A stretch of 61,595 nt of DNA, taken from assembly GCA_030637025.1 (NCBI GenBank), contig DAOVVV010000012.1:1-61595 (forward strand). The letters are read 5' to 3'. Under the pieces are notes generated by a model. It was given only the letters and a program-made list of their open reading frames with translations. It was not told the origin of the DNA and made no database searches. This DNA comes from Clostridia bacterium (GTDB taxonomy: Bacteria > CBDUZB01 > JAGLHV01). This document shows positions 3,111 to 48,064 of this stretch, in pieces; within the stretch, counting starts at the first letter, position 1; each line of letters opens with the position of its first letter. The position numbers were made by a program, and so were the translations under genes.

Positions 3111-3664
3111 AAAGAAAAATAAATTGGAGAAAGATAGACATAAAAGATTTAGCGTGTTTAATATCTGAGCATTTAAGAAAAAATAATATTGAAACTGTTC
3201 TTGTCGGGGAAGCTTGTGTTTCTATTTACTCCAACAATGAATATCTTTCATATGATCTTGATTTTGTAACGGAGAATACAATCAGAGAAATTAAACCAAT
3301 TTTAGAAGAAATAGGGTTTAAGCAAAAAAGTACGCGTCATTTTATAAGGAAAGATTGTTTATATTACATTGAATTGATTGCTTCTCCAGTAGCTATAGGG
3401 AACGATGAAGCAATAACAACATTTAAAAAGCTGAAAACAAAGAAAGGGGTGGTAGTATTGCTCACAGAAACTGATTGTGTTAAAGATAGGCTTGCAGCGT
3501 ATTATCATTGGAATGATCCTCAGTCATTAGAGCAGGCAGTAATGATAACTAAAAAACACGGGGTTGATTTGCAGGATATTAAAAAGTGGTCAGTAAAAGA
3601 AAAAGCAAAAGAAAAATTTGATAAATTTAAAAAGCTTTTAGATAACGAGAAAAAAGTCATTTAA
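3107..3664 (+). CDS. Nucleotidyltransferase-like protein (AbiEii-like; putative toxin)
   Basis: VLVGEACVSIY...SYDLDFV resembles the pol-beta NTase hG[GS]...DxD motif; translationally coupled to the wHTH gene. Confidence 0.6.
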   Translation: MKRKINWRKIDIKDLACLISEHLRKNNIETVLVGEACVSIYSNNEYLSYDLDFVTENTIREIKPILEEIGFKQKSTRHFIRKDCLYYIELIASPVAIGNDEAITTFKKLKTKKGVVVLLTETDCVKDRLAAYYHWNDPQSLEQAVMITKKHGVDLQDIKKWSVKEKAKEKFDKFKKLLDNEKKVI

Positions 3665-3712
3665 AAATAAATCGACAAAATAAGAAGAATTATGTTATAT
3701 TAAACATATTAA

Positions 3713-3817
3713 ACTAGGATTTGTTCTTCTTGCCAAACAGAAGTGCCATTTAAAGCAGGTTTCCGGGTTTCATCGTTAAAGTGTCCAAAATGCGGTAAGC
3801 TTATGGGTAAGAAATAA
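3713..3817 (+). pseudogene. Start-less fragment of a small zinc-ribbon protein
   Basis: Frame reads TRICSSCQTEVPFKAGFRVSSLKCPKCGKLMGKK* (two CxxC motifs); upstream in-frame TAA and no start codon. Confidence 0.4.
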
Positions 3818-4008
3818 ACTCTTCACAAGTATAAAAAGAAAGAAAAACAAAGGGGGGGGAAGCAACCGTCCCCTATGTTTTATGTCAGTAAAATTTTTTA
3901 TAAAGGCGGTAAAACTATGTAAAAAATTTTCTTGATTTTTTGTTACAGAAATTAAAAATATTTGTAGATAAGCAGAAAACTGTTTTTTTAAAAAAAAGGA
4001 GGTTTACC

Positions 4009-6105
4009 TTGGAAATTATCAAAAGAGCAGTACTGTTATTATTAATGTTGAATTTATTTACGCCGCGTGTATTTGCTAGCGGAGAAGGAGTATTTACGGA
4101 ATTAGCGCTTTTTGGAGAAGAAGATTTGGTAGTAACTGCAGCCCGGTATGAACAGAAAGCAAGTGAGGCCCCGGCAGTTATTGAGGTAATAACAGCGGAT
4201 GAGATTAAGAAAAGTGGCGCTACAAATTTAATTGATCTATTAAGTCACCTGCCAGGTGCTTTTGAATCTCTGGCTATGTCAGGACGTGTGGGTCTAATTT
4301 TTAGAGGACAGAACTTCGGAGCAATTAAGTTTATGATTGATGGACATCCAATCAATCAGCTTTTATACGGTGATTTTGACAATTGGGTCAAAATGGATTT
4401 AGATATAGTTAAGCAGATTGAGGTGATAAGGGGGCCTGGTTCTGCATTATATGGAACTGATGCATTTAGTGGAGTGATTAATATAATTACCAAAAAAGGC
4501 AGTGACATAAATGGGGTAGAGGTTAACATCAAAGGCGGAAGTTTTGAAACCGGGGGGGGAAGTATTCTTATTGGCAATAAGATCAAAGATGATTTAACTT
4601 ATAAACTTTTTTTTCAGCATACAAAAAGCGATGGTTCGGGGTGCGAATTAGAATACGATATTTTACAGGGGACACCTTTTACACTATGTCCGGGAAAAAT
4701 GCACGAAGGATTTGATATTACAACTGTATCCTTAGGTGTAGAAAATACTGATTTTTATGTGCGTGCTATGTATTTAAAATCGGCAAAAGACAACTTGATT
4801 GGTGCTATGTTTGCTTTGGTAGACGACTCGGAGGTTTCCACCAATGAATACTTTATTGAAGGGGCGTATGTTTTTAAAGTCAATGAAAATACAGCTTTTA
4901 CCCCCAAAGTATATTATCATTATTGGGACAATAAACAGCTGGATGGCGTACTTTTACCAAAGGGATATTATATGATCGTTCCTTCTATGCCCCCTTATAT
5001 TCCCCAAGATTTTAATGCAGATGGTATATTAGAGTATTGGCCTGAAGGTGCATTAGCTGTGGCTGGAGAGAAGGAGGAACTTTATGGAATAGAACTTAAA
5101 TTAGAAATGCCGTTAACTGATGCAGGGAAATTTATAGGAGGCATATTTTTTGAGGGAACTAAAGTCTTTGATGTTGTTACAAAGGCAAACATAGATCCGG
5201 TTTATTTTTTCAATTTAGGAACATTTATGGATATAAGCGACACCCGTAATTTTAATGCCGGGGGAGAAAGAACTGTATATGGTAGCTTTGCTCAGGTTGA
5301 CTGGAAATTAAAGGATAACCTGAGTACTATTGTAGGTGCCCGGTATGACCACTATGATGATTTTGGAGATACATTCAATCCCCGCTGCGGATTAGTTTGG
5401 GAATTTAATGAGAAAGGGAATGTCAAACTTCTCTATGGAAGTGCGTTTAGAGCGCCTACTTTCGGTCAATTATATAATCAGAACCAGCCGGTAGTTATGG
5501 GAAACAAAGACCTTAAGCCGGAAAAGATTCAGACTGGTGAAATATCTTTAAATTACACCCCTATAAATAAATTGAATACAGTTTTAACTGTTTTTAAAAG
5601 TACGATAAGGGATGGAATTGGAATGGATACTTCATCAAAAATTCTTCCCACAGATCCAGCTAAATGGGGCAATATTCTTGAATTAGATTCCAGCGGAGTA
5701 GAAACTGAAGCAAAATATTATCTTTGGGAAAAGACATATTTATACGGCAGTTTTACTTATATTGAGAGTGAAAAAGGAAGCGAAGAAATGGAAAATGTTC
5801 CACAGAATTCCGGAAGTTTCGGCCTAAATATTAACTTTGCTAAACATTACAACTGGAATACAATGCTGTACTATACAGGAGAGAAACCCAGGGATGTTGC
5901 TGGCGGAGATACAAGAGATCCGCTTTCTTCTTATACTTTAGTAGATACTGCTTTTTTGATTGAAGGTCTTATAAAAGATATGGATATTAAATTTATTGTA
6001 AAGAATCTGTTTGATGAGAAATATTACTATCCAGGCACAATAGCAACATCGGATTATACACGACCAGGAATAAGTTTCTATGCAAGCATGGGGTATAAGT
6101 TTTAA
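4009..6105 (+). CDS. TonB-dependent outer membrane receptor
   Basis: Plug motif VVTAAR...IEVIRGPGSALYG, GARYDHY, C-terminal MGYKF. TTG start after AGGAGG, followed by a signal peptide. Confidence 0.93.
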   Translation: MEIIKRAVLLLLMLNLFTPRVFASGEGVFTELALFGEEDLVVTAARYEQKASEAPAVIEVITADEIKKSGATNLIDLLSHLPGAFESLAMSGRVGLIFRGQNFGAIKFMIDGHPINQLLYGDFDNWVKMDLDIVKQIEVIRGPGSALYGTDAFSGVINIITKKGSDINGVEVNIKGGSFETGGGSILIGNKIKDDLTYKLFFQHTKSDGSGCELEYDILQGTPFTLCPGKMHEGFDITTVSLGVENTDFYVRAMYLKSAKDNLIGAMFALVDDSEVSTNEYFIEGAYVFKVNENTAFTPKVYYHYWDNKQLDGVLLPKGYYMIVPSMPPYIPQDFNADGILEYWPEGALAVAGEKEELYGIELKLEMPLTDAGKFIGGIFFEGTKVFDVVTKANIDPVYFFNLGTFMDISDTRNFNAGGERTVYGSFAQVDWKLKDNLSTIVGARYDHYDDFGDTFNPRCGLVWEFNEKGNVKLLYGSAFRAPTFGQLYNQNQPVVMGNKDLKPEKIQTGEISLNYTPINKLNTVLTVFKSTIRDGIGMDTSSKILPTDPAKWGNILELDSSGVETEAKYYLWEKTYLYGSFTYIESEKGSEEMENVPQNSGSFGLNINFAKHYNWNTMLYYTGEKPRDVAGGDTRDPLSSYTLVDTAFLIEGLIKDMDIKFIVKNLFDEKYYYPGTIATSDYTRPGISFYASMGYKF

Positions 6106-7080: not shown

Positions 7081-7923
7081 ATGGTTGAAATAGGAAAACT
7101 AAATAAGCTAAGGGTAGTCAAGAGAGTTGATTTTGGAATTTATCTTGACGGGGAAGATTTTGGTGAAATTTTACTTCCCCGCAGATATGTGCCGGAGAAT
7201 TGTGAAATCGATGACATTATAGAAGTTTTTGTCTATTTTGATTCCGAAGACCGTATTATTGCCACTACCGAAAAACCTTATGCGATGGTGGGTCAGTTTG
7301 CTTTGTTAAAGGTTATTTCGGTTAATTCTGTTGGGGCATTTATTGATTGGGGTTTACCCAAAGATTTGCTGGTACCTTTTCGTGAACAAAAGCAAAAAAT
7401 GGAAGAAGGCAAATCATATGTTGTTTTTATCTACCTCGACAAAAGTAAACGTATTGTCGCTTCTTCGAAACTGGATAAATTTCTTGACACTATGCCGATT
7501 AATTTTCAGGAAGGGCAGGAAGTGGAACTGTTAGTATGCTGTCAGACCGATATTGGTTATAAAGCAATTATTAACGGATGCCATGGTGGTATTCTTTATA
7601 AAAACGAAGTGTTTCAAATATTAGAAAAAGGACAGCAAATAAAAGGGTTCATTAAAAAAGTGAGAGATGATAAAAAAATAGATCTCTGTCTGCATAAACC
7701 CGGCTATGAAAAGGTTGGTGATTTGTCGGAAAGAATTATTGACACCCTGAAAAAACGAGATGGGTTTATTTCAGTAGGAGATAAAAGTTCTCCGAAAATT
7801 ATTTATGACATGTTTGGAGTAAGTAAGAAAACATACAAAAAGGCAATAGGAGTTCTTTATAAAAAAAGGTTGATAACTTTTGAGGATAACGGCATAAAAC
7901 TACAGAAAAAGAGGGACATTTAG
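7081..7923 (+). CDS. cvfB: CvfB/YitL family S1 RNA-binding protein
   Basis: GIYLDG...ILLP, GAFIDWGLPKDLLVP, C-terminal wHTH SKKTYKKAIGVLYKKRLI. Confidence 0.9.
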   Translation: MVEIGKLNKLRVVKRVDFGIYLDGEDFGEILLPRRYVPENCEIDDIIEVFVYFDSEDRIIATTEKPYAMVGQFALLKVISVNSVGAFIDWGLPKDLLVPFREQKQKMEEGKSYVVFIYLDKSKRIVASSKLDKFLDTMPINFQEGQEVELLVCCQTDIGYKAIINGCHGGILYKNEVFQILEKGQQIKGFIKKVRDDKKIDLCLHKPGYEKVGDLSERIIDTLKKRDGFISVGDKSSPKIIYDMFGVSKKTYKKAIGVLYKKRLITFEDNGIKLQKKRDI

Positions 7924-8006
7924 CTAAAAAATTAGTAGTTGAGAGAATAGAATTAAAAAGAAACAGAAGGGGTGGGAAAAACATTGCTTATTAAGGATAC
8001 AAATAG

Positions 8007-8740
8007 ATGAATATTATAAAATCAAAGTCCAATCCTAAAATAAAAAATTTAAAAAAACTGATTGCAGACAGAAAACACAGGTATTCGAATAAGGAATATG
8101 TTATCGAGGGCGTTCGGGCGCTTGATGATGTGGATGTTATTAAGGAAATATTTGTTTGTTAGGGAAGAGCTATACCCAGGGTAATAGCGGGAAAGATTTA
8201 TATCGTAGAGAAAAATTGTTTTAAATATGTATCTTCAACAGAAAACAGTCAGGGAGTGATCGCGGTTGTCCCTTTAAATGTGCTGAACAGTTCGGAGATT
8301 AGAAAAGATTTGAAATATGTTTTATTGGATCGCTTGCAAGATCCGGGAAATATGGGAACAGTTATCCGTACTGCAGCCGCATTCAACTTAAACGGTATAA
8401 TTCTTACTCCTGGATGTGTTGATCCTTTTTCTCCCAAGACGGCAAGGGCATCGGCAGGATATATAACCAAAACAAATGTTATAAATATAAAAATATGGAT
8501 GAAATTAAAGGTTTTAATATAATCGGTGCTGATTTGAAAGGAGAAGATATTGCAGGGTTTCAATGGCCTGGGGGTTTCATTCTTTGTATTGGCAATGAAT
8601 CAGCAGGGCTGTCCGGTGAAGTAAAATCTTCTGCCAAAGCAATGGTTTCTATTCCTATCTCGAATTCTGTAGAATCGCTCAATGCCGGCATTTCTCTGGG
8701 AATTATTTTATATTGTGCCACCAGGGAAAAAGTAAAATAA
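8007..8740 (+). pseudogene. TrmH/SpoU family RNA methyltransferase, disrupted
   Basis: MNIIKSKSNPKIK...VIEG start; in-frame TAG at 8160-8162; LQDPGNMGTVIRTA motif; frameshift near 8490; then GNESAGLS and VESLNAG motifs. Confidence 0.85.
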
Positions 8741-8848
8741 GGAAAAACGGATAATTAATTTGAATGTAGAAATATTTAATAAAAGATTTTTTTTTTAGTT
8801 ATTGTTTTTGTTTCTTCTACAAAATTATTAAGTGGGGATGAGATTATA

Positions 8849-9823
8849 ATGAGTACAAATAAAATTCCAATAATCTATACCCAAGAGTATGATATTGGTT
8901 TATTTAATATTGAAAAATTACATCCGTTTGACACAGCAAAATATAGTAAGGTTTACAAATATCTTCTTGAAGAATGTGGTATTTCTAAAGAACAATTTTT
9001 TATGCCCCAAATAGCTTCGGATGAAGATTTATTATTAATTCACACCTCCCAATATTTAAATTCCCTGAAAAAATCCAAAAATATAGCAGAAATTGCAGAA
9101 ATGGGGATTTTGTCAATTATTCCTAATTTTATTTTAAGAAAAACAATACTTAGACCTATGAAATATGCTACAGGTGGTACTATATTAGGTTGTAAACTTG
9201 CGTTAAAATACGGTTGGGCAATAAATTTATCAGGTGGTTATCATCATGCAAAAGTCGATTCAGGTAGTGGATTTTGCTTTTTTGCGGATATTCCTATAGC
9301 GGTAAATAGATTAAAGGAAAATAATCCAAATCTTAAAATTTTAATAATTGATTTGGATGCACATCAAGGTAATGGTCTTGAAAGTGTTTTCAAAGATGAT
9401 CCAAAAGTATATATATTTGATGTATATAATGGATTTATTTATCCTCAAGATCACCGGGTAAAAAAATATATAGATTTTAATTATCCTGTTGAGATGGGTA
9501 TTAATGATATGCAATATTTGTCAATATTGTATAATCATCTTGCAGATGCAGTTGAAAAGGTCAAACCGGATATTATAATTTATAATGCAGGCACGGATAT
9601 TTATGAAAAAGATCCATTAGGTGCTTTAAATATTTCTATGCAGGGGATTATAAAAAGAGACGAAATAATTTTTAGAGAAGCTGTAGATAATGAAATTCCA
9701 ATATTAATGGTTTTATCCGGAGGTTATACTAAACAAAGTGCAGAAATTATTGGTAAATCAATAGAAAATATACTTAACAATGTGATTGAATATAACAAGA
9801 GAGATAAAAGACAAAAGAATTAA
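8849..9823 (+). CDS. Zn-dependent histone deacetylase family protein (HDAC11/class IV-like)
   Basis: HPFDTAKY, NLSGGYHHA, GFC, DLDAHQGNG, YNAGTD, SGGY motifs. Confidence 0.92.
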   Translation: MSTNKIPIIYTQEYDIGLFNIEKLHPFDTAKYSKVYKYLLEECGISKEQFFMPQIASDEDLLLIHTSQYLNSLKKSKNIAEIAEMGILSIIPNFILRKTILRPMKYATGGTILGCKLALKYGWAINLSGGYHHAKVDSGSGFCFFADIPIAVNRLKENNPNLKILIIDLDAHQGNGLESVFKDDPKVYIFDVYNGFIYPQDHRVKKYIDFNYPVEMGINDMQYLSILYNHLADAVEKVKPDIIIYNAGTDIYEKDPLGALNISMQGIIKRDEIIFREAVDNEIPILMVLSGGYTKQSAEIIGKSIENILNNVIEYNKRDKRQKN

Positions 9824-25529: not shown

Positions 25530-27296
25530 ATGAAAAGGAAATATTTTTTGTTTTTGAAAACAGTATGGATTTTGGTAGGGGTTATGTGCTTGGGTTGTAT
25601 AAAAGCGGGAGCGGTGGGGACGCTGATTCCCCTTTCTTCAGCTACTTATAACGGAGGTAGCCAAGAAGATGCTTATTCTGTAGCTGTAGACGGAGATGGG
25701 AATGTTTTTGTTACCGGTACCCTTCAAAATGGAGCAAGTCTTGATTATTGTACTATAAAGTATAACAATGATTTGTCTTTAACACTCGCTTCGGTTGTTT
25801 TTAACGGTTCCGACAACAGAGATGACCGGGCTAGAGCAGTAGCCGTAGACGGGGACGGAAATATTTTTGTTACCGGGGAAAGTTATAGCGGAACAAATTT
25901 CGATTATTGTACTATCAAATATAACAATGACCTTTCCGTAATGCTGGCTTCGGCTACTTATCATGGTTCTATAAATGGATGGGAAAGGGCTTATGGATTA
26001 GCGATAGATAATACAGGGAATATTATTGTTACCGGACAAAATTGGAATGGGTTAAACCTGGATTATTGTACTATTAAATATAACAATGACCTTTCCGTAA
26101 TATTAGCTTCGGCTGTTTACGATAATTCCGGAGCTGATAATGCTTATGCGGTAGCTTTAGATACGGATGGAAATATTTTTGTTACCGGACAAAGCTGGGG
26201 TGGATCAAGTTATGATTATTGTACGGTTAAATATAACAGTGATCTTTCTGCAGTACTGGCTTCGACTACCTATGATGCTCCTGCAGGAGACTGGGATAGT
26301 GCTAAAGCAATAGACGTAGATAATGATGGAAATATTTTTGTTACCGGGACGTGTTCCGACGGAGTAATTTTTTATTGTTATACTGTAAAGTATAATAACG
26401 ATCTTTCTCTGGTGCTTGGTTCGGTTACTTATAATTGCCCTGTACCTGGTGATGATTCCGGCATGGGATTGACCATAGATTCGGGTGGAAATATTATTGT
26501 TGCCGGATATAGTTCTAATGGTGTAAATAATGATTATTTTAATTTCATCTATAACAATGATCTTTCCGTAATATTGGCTTCGGCTGTTTATGATAGTTCC
26601 GGAGCTGATAATGCTTATGCGGTAACTTTAGATGCAAACGGAAATATTTTTACTACCGGGTCTAGTTGGAGCGGTGGAGGTAATGATTATTTTACTATAA
26701 AATATAATGGTTCGCCGATGATTTCCTCTGTTTCTCCTACGGACGGAAATCATGGAGAAACCTTGGTATTTACTATAAACGGTTTAAATTTTTTTAGCGG
26801 AGCGAAAGTAGATTTTAGTGGTGAGGGAATAATAGTGAATTCCGTTAATTTTATAAATTCGACTCAAATTGAGGTAAATATTACTATTGTCCGGGGTGCT
26901 TTTTTAGGAGCGAGGGATATAACCGTTACTAATACCGATGATGTTAGTGCGACTCTATCAGCGGCATTTGAAGTCAGAGGATTATTATCAGGAGATGACG
27001 ATGAAATAGATGAAGTAAAGATTCAGGGAGGGGAGAACGGGTATGTAAGTTTTTCTAAAGGAGATGATGTTACAATTTATTTTAAAACTAGCGATCCCGG
27101 AGAGATTAAGCTAAAGGTTTATACCTTACGGGGGCAATTAGCATGGGAAGAAACTAAAGAAACCGATGGGGAGGAAGATTTTATTATTTGGGATGGGAAA
27201 AATACTGAGGGAACGGTTGTGGCTTCCGGGGTTTATGTGATTTTGATTGATGGTCCCGGGATAAACACTACTAATAAAATAGCTATTATAAAATAG
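25530..27296 (+). CDS. Secreted SBBP-type beta-propeller protein with IPT/TIG domain and FlgD-Ig-like C-terminal domain
   Basis: Seven ~52-aa repeats (AVDGDGNIFVTG...DYCTIKYNNDLS); PMISSVSP TIG domain; C-terminal WDGKN..G..VASGVY...KIAIIK. Confidence 0.85.
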   Translation: MKRKYFLFLKTVWILVGVMCLGCIKAGAVGTLIPLSSATYNGGSQEDAYSVAVDGDGNVFVTGTLQNGASLDYCTIKYNNDLSLTLASVVFNGSDNRDDRARAVAVDGDGNIFVTGESYSGTNFDYCTIKYNNDLSVMLASATYHGSINGWERAYGLAIDNTGNIIVTGQNWNGLNLDYCTIKYNNDLSVILASAVYDNSGADNAYAVALDTDGNIFVTGQSWGGSSYDYCTVKYNSDLSAVLASTTYDAPAGDWDSAKAIDVDNDGNIFVTGTCSDGVIFYCYTVKYNNDLSLVLGSVTYNCPVPGDDSGMGLTIDSGGNIIVAGYSSNGVNNDYFNFIYNNDLSVILASAVYDSSGADNAYAVTLDANGNIFTTGSSWSGGGNDYFTIKYNGSPMISSVSPTDGNHGETLVFTINGLNFFSGAKVDFSGEGIIVNSVNFINSTQIEVNITIVRGAFLGARDITVTNTDDVSATLSAAFEVRGLLSGDDDEIDEVKIQGGENGYVSFSKGDDVTIYFKTSDPGEIKLKVYTLRGQLAWEETKETDGEEDFIIWDGKNTEGTVVASGVYVILIDGPGINTTNKIAIIK

Positions 27297-27450
27297 AAAT
27301 AATAAAAAAAATCCTTACAACCCCGGATGGGTGTTTATTGGAAATTTATGAAGGATAACAAATTAGATATGGAAGGATTTGGGACAGAATGAATTTATCT
27401 GATTTAGACCCGTTTTTATTTAAGGTTTTATTTTTATAATATGATAACTT

Positions 27451-27646
27451 GGGAGATGCAAGCAGCCATTTTGAAATCTTCAGTTTGGTTCTGCGTATTG
27501 GCCTTCCATTGGTTTGTGCTCAGGCACGGTGAGGGTTCAACTCCCTAAAAAAGTTCTGTCTCTGAGGGTCAGCTTATGCAGCCAAATCAATAGCTTTGCA
27601 GGTTAAGACCTTCGCTATTGATTGGTAACCCTTGGAGGTAGAGCTT
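27451..27646 (+). ncRNA. Putative structured non-coding RNA / cis-regulatory leader of the slipin gene
   Basis: TATAAT at 27435. T-arm mimic AGGG-TTCAACT-CCCT (27532-27546). 18-bp stem 27551-27568/27629-27646 whose five non-Watson-Crick pairs are all G-U. Nested stems 27582-27594/27614-27625 and AGGT-TAAG-ACCT. Confidence 0.65.
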
Positions 27647-27660
27647 ATTATAAAGAAATT

Positions 27661-27791
27661 AATAATTTTGCAAAATAGCTTTTTATCTTTTTTGCCTGTC
27701 CTCTCCGCCTCATCCTCCGCCTCAGGCGGAGCGGAATGACCCGCCTTAAGGACTGGCGGACAGGCAGAATATTATATTTTGCAGAAGTCTA
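27661..27791. mobile_element. MITE-like insertion carrying REP-like GC-rich palindromes
   Basis: 11-bp direct repeat ATAAAGAAATT at 27650-27660 and 27792-27802; imperfect 16-bp terminal inverted repeats; right end recurs at about 33806-33840; internal palindromes recur at 34791-34907. Confidence 0.6.
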
Positions 27792-27823
27792 ATAAAGAAA
27801 TTGTAAAAGGAGGAAAATCGTAA

Positions 27824-28618
27824 ATGGCGCCTTTAATTATTACAAGTGTTATTTTAATTTTTATTATTAAGGTCTTGTATTTTAAAAGGATTACTATCTT
27901 TGAGTATGAAAGAGGATTGAAATATTCAAAGGGTAAATTCAAAAAAATTCTGAATCCCGGTCAATATTGGATTTTTACTTATTCCACCAGTATTAGAAAA
28001 GTTGATATAAGGCCTAAATTTGTATCGATAACCGGGCAGGAGATAATAAGTGCGGATAGTATTACTTTGAAAATTAGTATTGCTGCGAAATATGAAATAA
28101 TAAAACCTGATATTGCTGTTAACCATTCGGAAAATTATCAGGAAGCATTTTATTTAATATTACAATTAGCTTTGAGAGAAATTATTGGATTGGCAAAAAT
28201 TGATGAAGTTTTAGAAAAACGTAATTTATTTGGTGAAAAACTTATGCAGCTTACTACAACAAAAGTTGAAGAATTAGGCTTGAAACTATTATCGGTAAAC
28301 ATTAAAGATATTATGTTTCCCGGTGAATTAAAGAAAATGTTTGCTCAGGTAGTTAAAGCCCGGAAAGAGGGATTGGCGGCATTAGAAAAAACAAGGGGTG
28401 AAACGGCAGCATTGAGAAATCTGGTTAATGCGGCTAAGATGATAGAAAACAACCCAAATTTGATGCAATTAAGATTATTACAACTGATAGGGGAATCATC
28501 AGGGAATACTGTTGTTTTAGGTTCTTCCCCGGTGGTTGCACCTTTGCCGGTAAAGAATAAAAAAATTGGTAAGTCTAAAATTGAGAAATTAAAAAAGGCT
28601 AAAAAAGAGGAAGAATAA
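27824..28618 (+). CDS. Slipin family SPFH/band-7 domain protein
   Basis: IFEYERGL, GQEIISAD, ALREIIG, IKDIMFPG, RGETAALRNLVNAAKMIENNPNLMQLR. Confidence 0.9.
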   Translation: MAPLIITSVILIFIIKVLYFKRITIFEYERGLKYSKGKFKKILNPGQYWIFTYSTSIRKVDIRPKFVSITGQEIISADSITLKISIAAKYEIIKPDIAVNHSENYQEAFYLILQLALREIIGLAKIDEVLEKRNLFGEKLMQLTTTKVEELGLKLLSVNIKDIMFPGELKKMFAQVVKARKEGLAALEKTRGETAALRNLVNAAKMIENNPNLMQLRLLQLIGESSGNTVVLGSSPVVAPLPVKNKKIGKSKIEKLKKAKKEEE

Positions 28619-34626: not shown

Positions 34627-34790
34627 AATAAAGGGAAAATATGTTTTTGTCTAAATGCGTAATTTTACCCTGTGGACACGCAAAAATAAGCTAAAAATGA
34701 GCAACTCGCTTTACTCAGACAGGCTCATTTTTTTAACGCATATTTTTACTAAAATTCGCTAAGTCGTTCAAAACTCATTTTGCCTTTATT
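34627..34790. repeat. 164-bp long-hairpin / MITE-like repeat, copy 1
   Basis: 21-bp terminal inverted repeats and nested internal stems; full copy at 49663-49826, right-end fragment at 51220-51265. Confidence 0.85.
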
Positions 34791-34907
34791 GCCTGCCCGC
34801 CAGTCCTTAAGGCGGGTCATTCCTGCGGAAGCAGGAATCTATTGATATTTTAAGAACATTATAGATTCCGCATCATCCTCCGCCTCAGGCGGATGAGGCG
34901 GAGCGGA
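34791..34907. repeat. Cluster of REP-like GC-rich palindromes
   Basis: GCCTGCCCGCCAGTCCTTAAGGCGGGTCATTCC is the reverse complement of about 27733-27766 (one mismatch); CATCCTCCGCCTCAGGCGGA is shared with 27711-27730. Confidence 0.75.
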
Positions 34908-35404: not shown

Positions 35405-35487
35405 TCTGATAAGGGCAAACTTCGGGAGACCGAAGGACGCAAAACTGCGGGTCCACAATTATAGTGGAAAGCCGGGTTACCAAAGAG
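35405..35487 (+). ncRNA. c-di-GMP-I (GEMM) riboswitch aptamer
   Basis: AAGGGCAAAC-TTCGG-GAGA-CCGAAG-GACGCAAAAC...GGGTC...AGCCGGGTTACC matches the GEMM consensus, including a GNRA loop and G20. Confidence 0.92.
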
Positions 35488-47916: not shown

Positions 47917-47960
47917 AAAATAAAAATACCGGATTACCTTTAATATTTTCGGTAACCCGG
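47917..47960 (-). terminator. Intrinsic terminator built from the aptamer 3' strand
   Basis: Minus strand CCGGGTTACC-N12-GGTAATCCGG-TATTTTTATTTT. Confidence 0.75.
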
Positions 47961-48033
47961 CTATCCGTTATTACATAACAATGGATCACGAGGCTTTGCG
48001 TCTCTCAATTACTTGAGATTTGCCTTTTCGTTT
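47948..48033 (-). ncRNA. c-di-GMP-I (GEMM) riboswitch aptamer
   Basis: Minus strand GAAAAGGCAAA-TCTCAA-GTAA-TTGAGA-GACGCAAAGCC...GGATAGCCGGGTTACCG. Confidence 0.92.
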
Positions 48034-48064
48034 GATTGATTATTTATAGACATTCTTTATTATA

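Follow-up and report, generated by a model that had tools for sequence, protein, structure and literature searches.

The leaders of thrS and of ribosomal-protein genes are translational operators that mimic tRNA or rRNA, and YrlA is reportedly a bacterial Y-RNA-like mimic of tRNA. The yjdF motif is an orphan riboswitch candidate that is tied to one gene family. For Pelobacter carbinolicus, the account of the rtc locus in PMC3543383 has rtcR on one side of a mutated, non-functional tRNA (Pcar_R0061) and, on the other, a stomatin-like gene with rtcA and rtcB after it. The rtc locus of P. aeruginosa contains an embedded SPFH gene (PMC13086221). Here we analyze an RNA containing a tRNA-type T-arm that lies upstream of a slipin (SPFH/Band 7) gene in DNA of a Clostridia bacterium (GenBank assembly GCA_030637025.1, contig DAOVVV010000012.1, positions 1 to 61,595). 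This whole stretch of 61,595 nucleotides is termed the window, and coordinates refer to it unless another contig is named.

A family of RNAs upstream of slipin genes

The element at 27447-27647 is almost certainly a member of a real, undescribed family of structured RNA of ~190 nt. A first-pass annotation of the window had proposed an unannotated structured RNA here, and had stated that similar leaders precede slipin genes in distant phyla. Rfam 15 at gathering thresholds contains no family that matches the window copy or any of 20 homologous loci, so the element is indeed unannotated. Permissive Rfam scans of three copies (27250-27850 for the window) returned noise only, and the sole echo of a known family was a 13-nt local match of 6.8 bits to the T-arm of transfer-messenger RNA (tmRNA) in one relative, L028. 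We found no description of a slipin-leader RNA in Rfam 15 or in the searchable literature, although the supplementary tables of motif surveys may list it under another name.

The statement on leaders in distant phyla was also correct. Slipins with 43-77% identity to that of the window are encoded at eight GenBank loci of other phyla, from a Desulfococcaceae bacterium, a delta-proteobacterial metagenome-assembled genome (MAG), two Planctomycetota, Omnitrophota, Anaerolineae, Chloroflexia and Hydrogenedentota, and most of these have recognizably similar sequence just 5' of the slipin gene. A metagenome scan with a slipin alignment yielded 328 relatives, of which the best 80 loci were used. A profile hidden Markov model of the RNA matches 81 of the 88 slipin-anchored loci. 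Covariance model R1 matches 82 of 89 sources, and model R2 matches 84 of 91, comprising 82 of the 88 slipin-anchored loci, the window, L107 and L108. The window copy scores 141.2 bits with R1 and 143.5 bits with R2, spanning model positions 1-194. All matches to R1 and R2 are on the slipin strand, directly upstream of the slipin gene, and the carriers include Planctomycetota, Chloroflexota, Omnitrophota and a delta-proteobacterial MAG. At six anchored loci that gave no match the contig ends within 100 nt of the slipin gene. L018 is the only slipin-anchored locus that seems to have no leader despite ample (3 kb) upstream DNA. The L018 slipin is 63% identical, and in the place of the leader, positions 2800-2900 of that locus contain repeats, among them a long hairpin that is a perfect palindrome.

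Searches from other starting points gave similar pairings. A protein-first search of 400 genomes of one phylum added two members of the slipin subfamily, both with the RNA, and an RNA-first scan of 150 other genomes gave good matches in two (G029 and G121), both 5' of slipin-like open reading frames (ORFs). A weak match in that scan (G057, E 8.5e-4), which lies within GC-rich DNA, was judged false. RNA-first scans of the phyla of G151 and G152 gave no match in 150 genomes each; the sensitivity of the RNA-first scans is low, with no more than 16 candidates scored in each genome. BLAST of the RNA against 61 genomes found its own copy only, with no match in the 60 others, three of which belong to the same genus; members of the family differ too much in sequence for this method. 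The three same-genus genomes lack an orthologue of the slipin, having only a 30%-identical paralogue. The leader sequence is single-copy in its own genome, and the RNA occurs just once in each of the five carrier genomes checked. No recurring neighbor gene other than the slipin was found beside it. A search of viral contigs with the pattern of the P8 hairpin (see below) gave four matches, none with the full motif; three gave short P8-only model matches and L119 gave none, and from their flanks we judge them to be coding sequence. In plasmids, tBLASTn found only slipins with 39% identity or less, from other subfamilies and in NfeD-linked or unrelated contexts. The leader family is phylogenetically scattered and tied to one slipin (SPFH/Band 7) subfamily. 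Leader and slipin thus make up a rare cassette with a patchy distribution, for which horizontal transfer is the probable route of spread.

None of the known stable RNAs that we considered accounts for the element. The first-pass annotation had held that it is not a tRNA, and we agree; of the cloverleaf it has the T-arm alone, the window contains no tRNA or tmRNA gene that ARAGORN recognizes, and the region has no match to RF00005 at E<=10. The tmRNA (RF00023) of this genome is on contig C72 with 220 bits, and its 6S RNA and RNase P RNA are likewise located elsewhere. It is next to inconceivable that the element is a divergent housekeeping RNA, such as that of the signal recognition particle (SRP), or a short coding region. 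In favor of such an origin, three Rfam models detect no SRP RNA in the genome, and a 35-codon ATG ORF (27443-27549) overlaps the 5' half of the leader. Yet the SRP models (RF00169, RF01854 and RF04183) have no match to the region at E<=10, the RNA is always 5' of a slipin gene, and scans detected no member of the family in the three same-genus genomes or in 147 of the 150 genomes sampled. The ORF is not conserved, and the longest ATG ORF within the motif has a median of 8 amino acids over 67 copies. As a separate observation, SRP RNA was not detected in this 97.8%-complete genome with the small bacterial, large bacterial and Bacteroidales models; it may be unassembled or divergent.

Consensus structure and the T-arm mimic

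The predicted structure of the RNA is set out in Table 1. We applied RNAalifold to seven MAFFT-aligned sequences from different phyla, giving 50 base pairs, with compensatory changes in 42. A structure of 62 pairs, with P1 and P1b around P2, the T-arm, P5/P6, P6a, P7 and P8, was evaluated on two alignments. In the sequence-only MAFFT alignment A3 (21 rows) 87.3% of cells are paired compared with a shuffled mean of 73.2%, and 55 of the 62 pairs have double changes (shuffled mean 32.1). Alignment A5, fitted to model R2 with 70 distinct rows, has 89.7% of cells paired (shuffled mean 69.6%) and double changes in 59 of 62 pairs. None of 500 shuffles reached the observed values in either alignment. 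Slid controls gave 42-49% for A3 and 36-48% for A5, a comparison in which the structure is somewhat favored because it was partly derived from the tested sequences. Covariation is present in every helix, and the column pairs with the highest mutual information are helix pairs. No mutual-information signal for a pseudoknot or tertiary contact was seen beyond a split between two sequence groups. In a related strain from another study the RNA has 10 differences; four of four substitutions at paired positions keep a standard pair, and a change of C27519 to T in the variable hairpin retains a U-G pair. Conservation and covariation upstream of slipin homologues, which the first-pass annotation had proposed as a check, are thus both found.

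The fold comprises a 5' rod with an AUC triloop, a T-arm beside a variable hairpin, and a 3' three-way junction with a long arm that ends in a bulged hairpin. The consensus has two separate domains and no helix joining the 5' end to the 3' end. Unpaired positions that show hardly any variation are those of the AUC triloop of P2 (95-97% conservation over 67 copies), U27490, A27580, U27597, U27604, A27606 and C27613. The most conserved part is the P8 hairpin with its CC bulge (UGCAGGU-UNAG-ACCU-CC-GC). The P8 loop GGTTAAGACC (27598-27615) resembles a hairpin GGGTTAAGTCCC near 23542 on contig C18 of the same genome, in a conserved rRNA-like stretch that we take to be its 16S rRNA gene; this may reflect the same type of loop or coincidence.

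Several features of the window sequence point to an RNA of the plus strand, as had been claimed. The GC content is 0.43-0.49 across 27450-27649, compared with 0.24-0.31 in the flanks. The minimum free energy (MFE) of the plus strand is -77.3 kcal/mol (z = -4.25, with none of 200 shuffles equally good), and that of the minus strand is -55.6 kcal/mol (z = -2.36). Helices of the window RNA are maintained by compensatory changes in other phyla. The individual elements noted earlier (the TATAAT, GC island, hairpin, T-arm, long 3' stem, inner stems and pair of GCAGCCA sequences) are all present. The hairpin GTGC-TCAG-GCAC at 27516-27527 is the inner part of a longer one. A consensus scan found no full sigma-70 match at the TATAAT; this is a putative promoter, from which the transcript would start near 27447.

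Table 1. Features of the slipin-leader RNA and the adjoining slipin gene in the window. Percentages are the fraction of cells paired.
Feature	Position	Strand	Basis and remarks
TATAAT, -10-like hexamer	27435-27440	+	sequence; 7-10 nt 5' of first conserved helix (P1)
Whole slipin-leader RNA	27447-27647	+	covariance models R1/R2, fold z, GC island
5' domain	27450-27508	+	P1 and P1b enclosing hairpin P2; covariation
P1	27450-27455 with 27503-27508	+	6/6 pairs covary, 82.8%
P1b	27458-27459 with 27501-27502	+	part of 5' domain
P2	27462-27475 with 27479-27494	+	12/13 pairs covary, 90%; cap is AUC triloop 27476-27478
Lineage-variable hairpin TTGTGC-TCAG-GCACGG	27514-27529	+	length or presence differs between homologues
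T-arm mimic AGGG-UUCAACU-CCCU, canonical T-loop	27532-27546	+	conservation and stem covariation
3' domain, three-way junction	27551-27646	+	P5/P6, P6a, P7 and P8; covariation
P5/P6 basal stem	27551-27568 with 27629-27646	+	18/18 pairs covary, 91.4%
P6a small tetraloop hairpin	27572-27579	+	95.6% family-wide; weak in window copy
P7 arm	27582-27594 with 27614-27625	+	12/12 pairs covary, 89%; 12-bp stem
P8 hairpin	27598-27603 with 27608-27615	+	100%; 4-6 bp; bulge 27612-27613; conserved loop U27604, A27606
Inserted segment, leader to ribosome-binding site	27650-27791		GC-rich palindromic dispersed repeat, core 27697-27768
Shine-Dalgarno AGGAGG of slipin	27808-27813	+	sequence
Slipin/SPFH (Band 7), 264 amino acids	27824-28618	+	Pfam Band_7 E 3.5e-27

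The T-arm mimic, which the first-pass annotation had singled out, is a feature of the family. A hairpin with a UUCRANN loop occurs in 56 of 67 distinct copies, two of which are doubtful, and in its stem 4/4 pairs covary with 83% of cells paired. The T-arm is missing from the single-sequence MFE fold of the window copy, and its support comes from conservation and the covariation of its stem. In one large soil group it follows directly after P1 (CUGGUUCGAUUCCAG) and is succeeded by a second hairpin; in the group to which the window belongs, the variable hairpin lies 5' of the T-arm.

The first-pass annotation further suggested a bistable switch, in which an alternative pairing closes off the tRNA-like domain and competes with the 3' stem. 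The two helices concerned, 27499-27506/27564-27571 (8 bp with two G-U pairs) and 27491-27497/27575-27581 (7 bp with one), can indeed be drawn in the window, and a 3-bp UGC/GCA core is conserved (helix 2, 88.9%). Across the family, however, 56.3% of cells can form the alternative pairs compared with 56.5% after shuffling, with 314 of 500 shuffles as high, and the main 8-bp helix is paired in 52% of cells. The repeated GCAGCCA sequence fares similarly. Both copies (27462 and 27578) are present in the window and each is complementary to 27486-27494, but the second is not conserved in the family. We therefore regard a switch of this kind as very unlikely.

Relation to YrlA and to rtc-linked tRNA-like RNAs

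A Y-RNA-like noncoding RNA had also been proposed. The slipin leader resembles YrlA in being a bacterial RNA that is not a tRNA and yet contains a T-arm mimic. It differs in that its ends are not paired, the consensus fold having no 5'-3' closing stem, in that it sits on a ribosome-binding site, and in that it has no Rfam match. Moreover, no TROVE/Ro60 match was found in the 97.8%-complete genome of the window. We therefore reject identification with YrlA or another bacterial Y RNA.

The same annotation had stated that such leaders are often near RtcB or Ro60 genes. This does not hold for the family, in which RtcB adjoins the leader at one of 88 loci. At that locus (L084, positions 1-495) the 3' end of an RtcB gene, whose product is 35% identical to the RtcB of the window's genome, is co-oriented with the leader and ends ~60 nt 5' of it. 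This is the only rtc adjacency. No RtcB was found within about 8 kb in L126 or L127, and the RtcB of the window's genome is on another contig. In an RtcB-first scan of one phylum RtcB was present in 185 of 201 genomes, and being near-universal there it made the scan uninformative. About 21 of the 150 RtcB matches listed for that phylum have a single in-frame TGA, which suggests a selenocysteine-containing or read-through form of RtcB in some members.

A search of 400 genomes for RtcR gave three matches, one of them on an 831-nt contig without context. The two complete loci, L130 (about 3170-4660, minus strand) and L131 (about 7660-8860, minus strand), both from another phylum, share one layout. 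Divergent from rtcR there is a sigma-54-like promoter region, followed by a tRNA-like RNA, a long untranslated stretch, a slipin-like gene and RtcB. Both tRNA-like RNAs bear a T-arm, and ARAGORN calls neither of them. One, with an anticodon loop of 5 nt, scores 35.2 bits against the tRNA model; a long insert interrupts the other. About 280 nt separate the D-arm-like part from the T-arm part in L130, a spacing that recalls tRNA mimics of the Y-RNA-like kind.

These RNAs and the slipin leader have in common that each is a T-arm-bearing tRNA mimic located 5' of a slipin-type SPFH gene that has the same orientation. In other respects they differ. The rtc-linked RNAs are a near-complete cloverleaf or a split D-arm and T-arm, whereas the slipin leader combines a T-arm with unrelated domains. 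They lie 450-800 nt from the slipin gene, beside rtcR and 5' of rtcB, whereas the leader abuts the ribosome-binding site and is rarely found near rtc genes. With filters off, model R2 gives them 2.6 bits, from the T-arm only, and their slipins are just 33-34% identical to that of the window. They are a separate class of RNA on the same theme. The link between a tRNA mimic, a slipin and RNA repair that the first-pass annotation drew is thus real in these RtcR loci, and is no more than a possibility in the slipin-leader family.

The rtc parallel makes it attractive to suppose that the T-arm mimic senses damage to, or the processing of, tRNA, being bound, modified or cut by enzymes that act on T-arms, by tRNA-targeting nucleases or by repair enzymes. 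We consider this possible but doubtful, and are equally tentative about the corollary that slipin synthesis reports on the condition of the tRNA pool, in a cousin of the Rtc response that does not depend on RtcR. Retention of the canonical T-arm in most copies of the leader is consistent with sensing, as are the shared layout of the two complete RtcR loci, the similar arrangements in P. carbinolicus and P. aeruginosa cited above, and the RtcB fragment directly 5' of the leader in L084. Against it stand the isolation of that single adjacency, the absence of Ro60 from the genome, the low score and divergent slipins of the rtc-linked RNAs, and the lack of a T-loop sequence in some members of the family. 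A more specific form, that the leader is a decoy of the tRNA elbow or T-arm that would read the integrity or processing of the tRNA pool, or attack by nucleases, with a slipin membrane cage as the response, seems to us no more than an outside chance of comparable size.

The junction with the slipin gene and possible function

In the relatives the end of the motif is mostly 14-22 nt from the start codon, and a GGAGG begins 0-5 nt 3' of the basal helix and motif end. In the window we found no intrinsic terminator between leader and slipin gene. With the Shine-Dalgarno sequence so close, no space for a promoter and no terminator, the simplest reading of the RNA is as the 5' leader of the slipin mRNA. 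We think it rather probable that it is a cis-acting leader, which would gate the initiation of translation.

A mechanism can be suggested from the geometry. In the relatives the basal helix has the T-arm at its 5' foot and the Shine-Dalgarno sequence at its 3' foot, so that any ligand or factor bound by the folded leader would occupy the ribosome-binding site and in this way gate initiation, acting in cis on expression of the slipin. Our first preference for the signal would be a protein or enzyme that recognizes tRNA T-arms, followed by a small molecule or ion, which would make the leader an orphan riboswitch, and thirdly by temperature or RNA stability. There is no conserved alternative helix and the anti-Shine-Dalgarno partners predicted by RNAduplex are scattered over 12 regions, and so control by a bound factor or ligand seems likelier than a simple two-state hairpin switch.

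The analogy with the leaders of thrS and the ribosomal-protein genes is that a mimic of a stable RNA lies beside a Shine-Dalgarno sequence, where a bound factor competes with the 30S subunit. The gene downstream of the slipin leader encodes a membrane scaffold and not a protein that binds tRNA or rRNA, which makes simple autoregulation by mimicry unlikely. Like the yjdF motif, the slipin leader is a large, covarying, multi-helix element of the 5' untranslated region with invariant junction and loop nucleotides, present across phyla with one gene; unlike it, the leader holds a full tRNA-type T-arm and lacks a recognizable expression platform. As in riboswitches, a conserved structured element is present in a predicted 5' untranslated region. 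Two c-di-GMP-I-type (cyclic di-GMP) riboswitch aptamers are located in the window at 47948-48034 (minus strand, 64 bits) and 35405-35485 (plus strand, 63.5 bits), and these are the only matches in the window at Rfam gathering thresholds.

A number of observations weigh against translational gating by the leader. The T-loop sequence is missing in 10 of 64 full-length copies, which keep a hairpin with a 7-nt loop, and is therefore not indispensable. No expression platform is recognizable, as we found neither a conserved alternative helix, nor a consistent anti-Shine-Dalgarno partner, nor a terminator in the window. Metabolite riboswitches are seldom tied to just one gene family. The collection was assembled mostly slipin-first, with RNA-first scans of low sensitivity, and the 3' end of the transcript and its co-transcription with the slipin gene are, like its start, predictions. 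Finally, the window leader is atypical in that 176 nt separate it from the start codon, a distance at odds with a steric mechanism at this locus.

That distance can be traced to an insertion. A contig of the related strain joins 27649 directly to 27792, so that 142 nt are absent. The segment contains a palindromic repeat of the REP/MITE type (repetitive extragenic palindrome or miniature inverted-repeat transposable element), which has 48 matches on both strands of the 2.36-Mb genome, including 34790-34907 of the window and many other contigs. Taken together these data indicate a recent insertion into the junction between the leader and the ribosome-binding site. The coupling of leader to slipin may be weakened in the window as a result, with the leader itself intact.

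The persistence of a full-scoring RNA at that distance from its gene bears on another explanation, that this is a stand-alone or processed noncoding RNA that works with the slipin protein, for example as the RNA partner of an oligomeric SPFH cage. The strict coupling of RNA and gene across phyla, with no other partner, could be read in this way, and the slipin has a Lys-rich C-terminal tail in addition to its N-terminal hydrophobic helix. The eukaryotic vault protein, whose shoulder domain is SPFH-like, carries vault RNA. However, the RNA of nearly every relative runs right up to the Shine-Dalgarno sequence, leaving no room for a terminator or promoter, no processing site is known, and we found no account of RNA binding by SPFH proteins in the literature searched. 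We regard an RNA partner as distinctly improbable, and continue to prefer a cis-acting leader. The slipin itself has weak HflK-like NCBIfam matches that fall below the cut-off, and PADLOC gave no defense-system match for it or its neighbors.

If the leader acts as we propose, it represents a new, widely scattered class of structured leader with unusually strong covariation, and would be among the few bacterial mRNA leaders to embed a canonical tRNA T-arm. It would also be the first dedicated RNA regulator of the poorly understood bacterial SPFH/slipin proteins, providing a handle on when cells need them. If the more doubtful decoy proposal were true, the leader would be a portable, RtcR-independent module that follows the same logic as the tRNA-like RNAs of the rtc operons and ties RNA damage to membrane remodeling; in a bolder variant, the RNA would be a structural partner of the slipin cage. 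Together, the leader and the rtc-operon RNAs point to an unexplored link of membrane scaffolds with tRNA mimicry or RNA damage, which could be tested directly in a carrier that is in culture, such as the planctomycete of L020, whose genome is complete.

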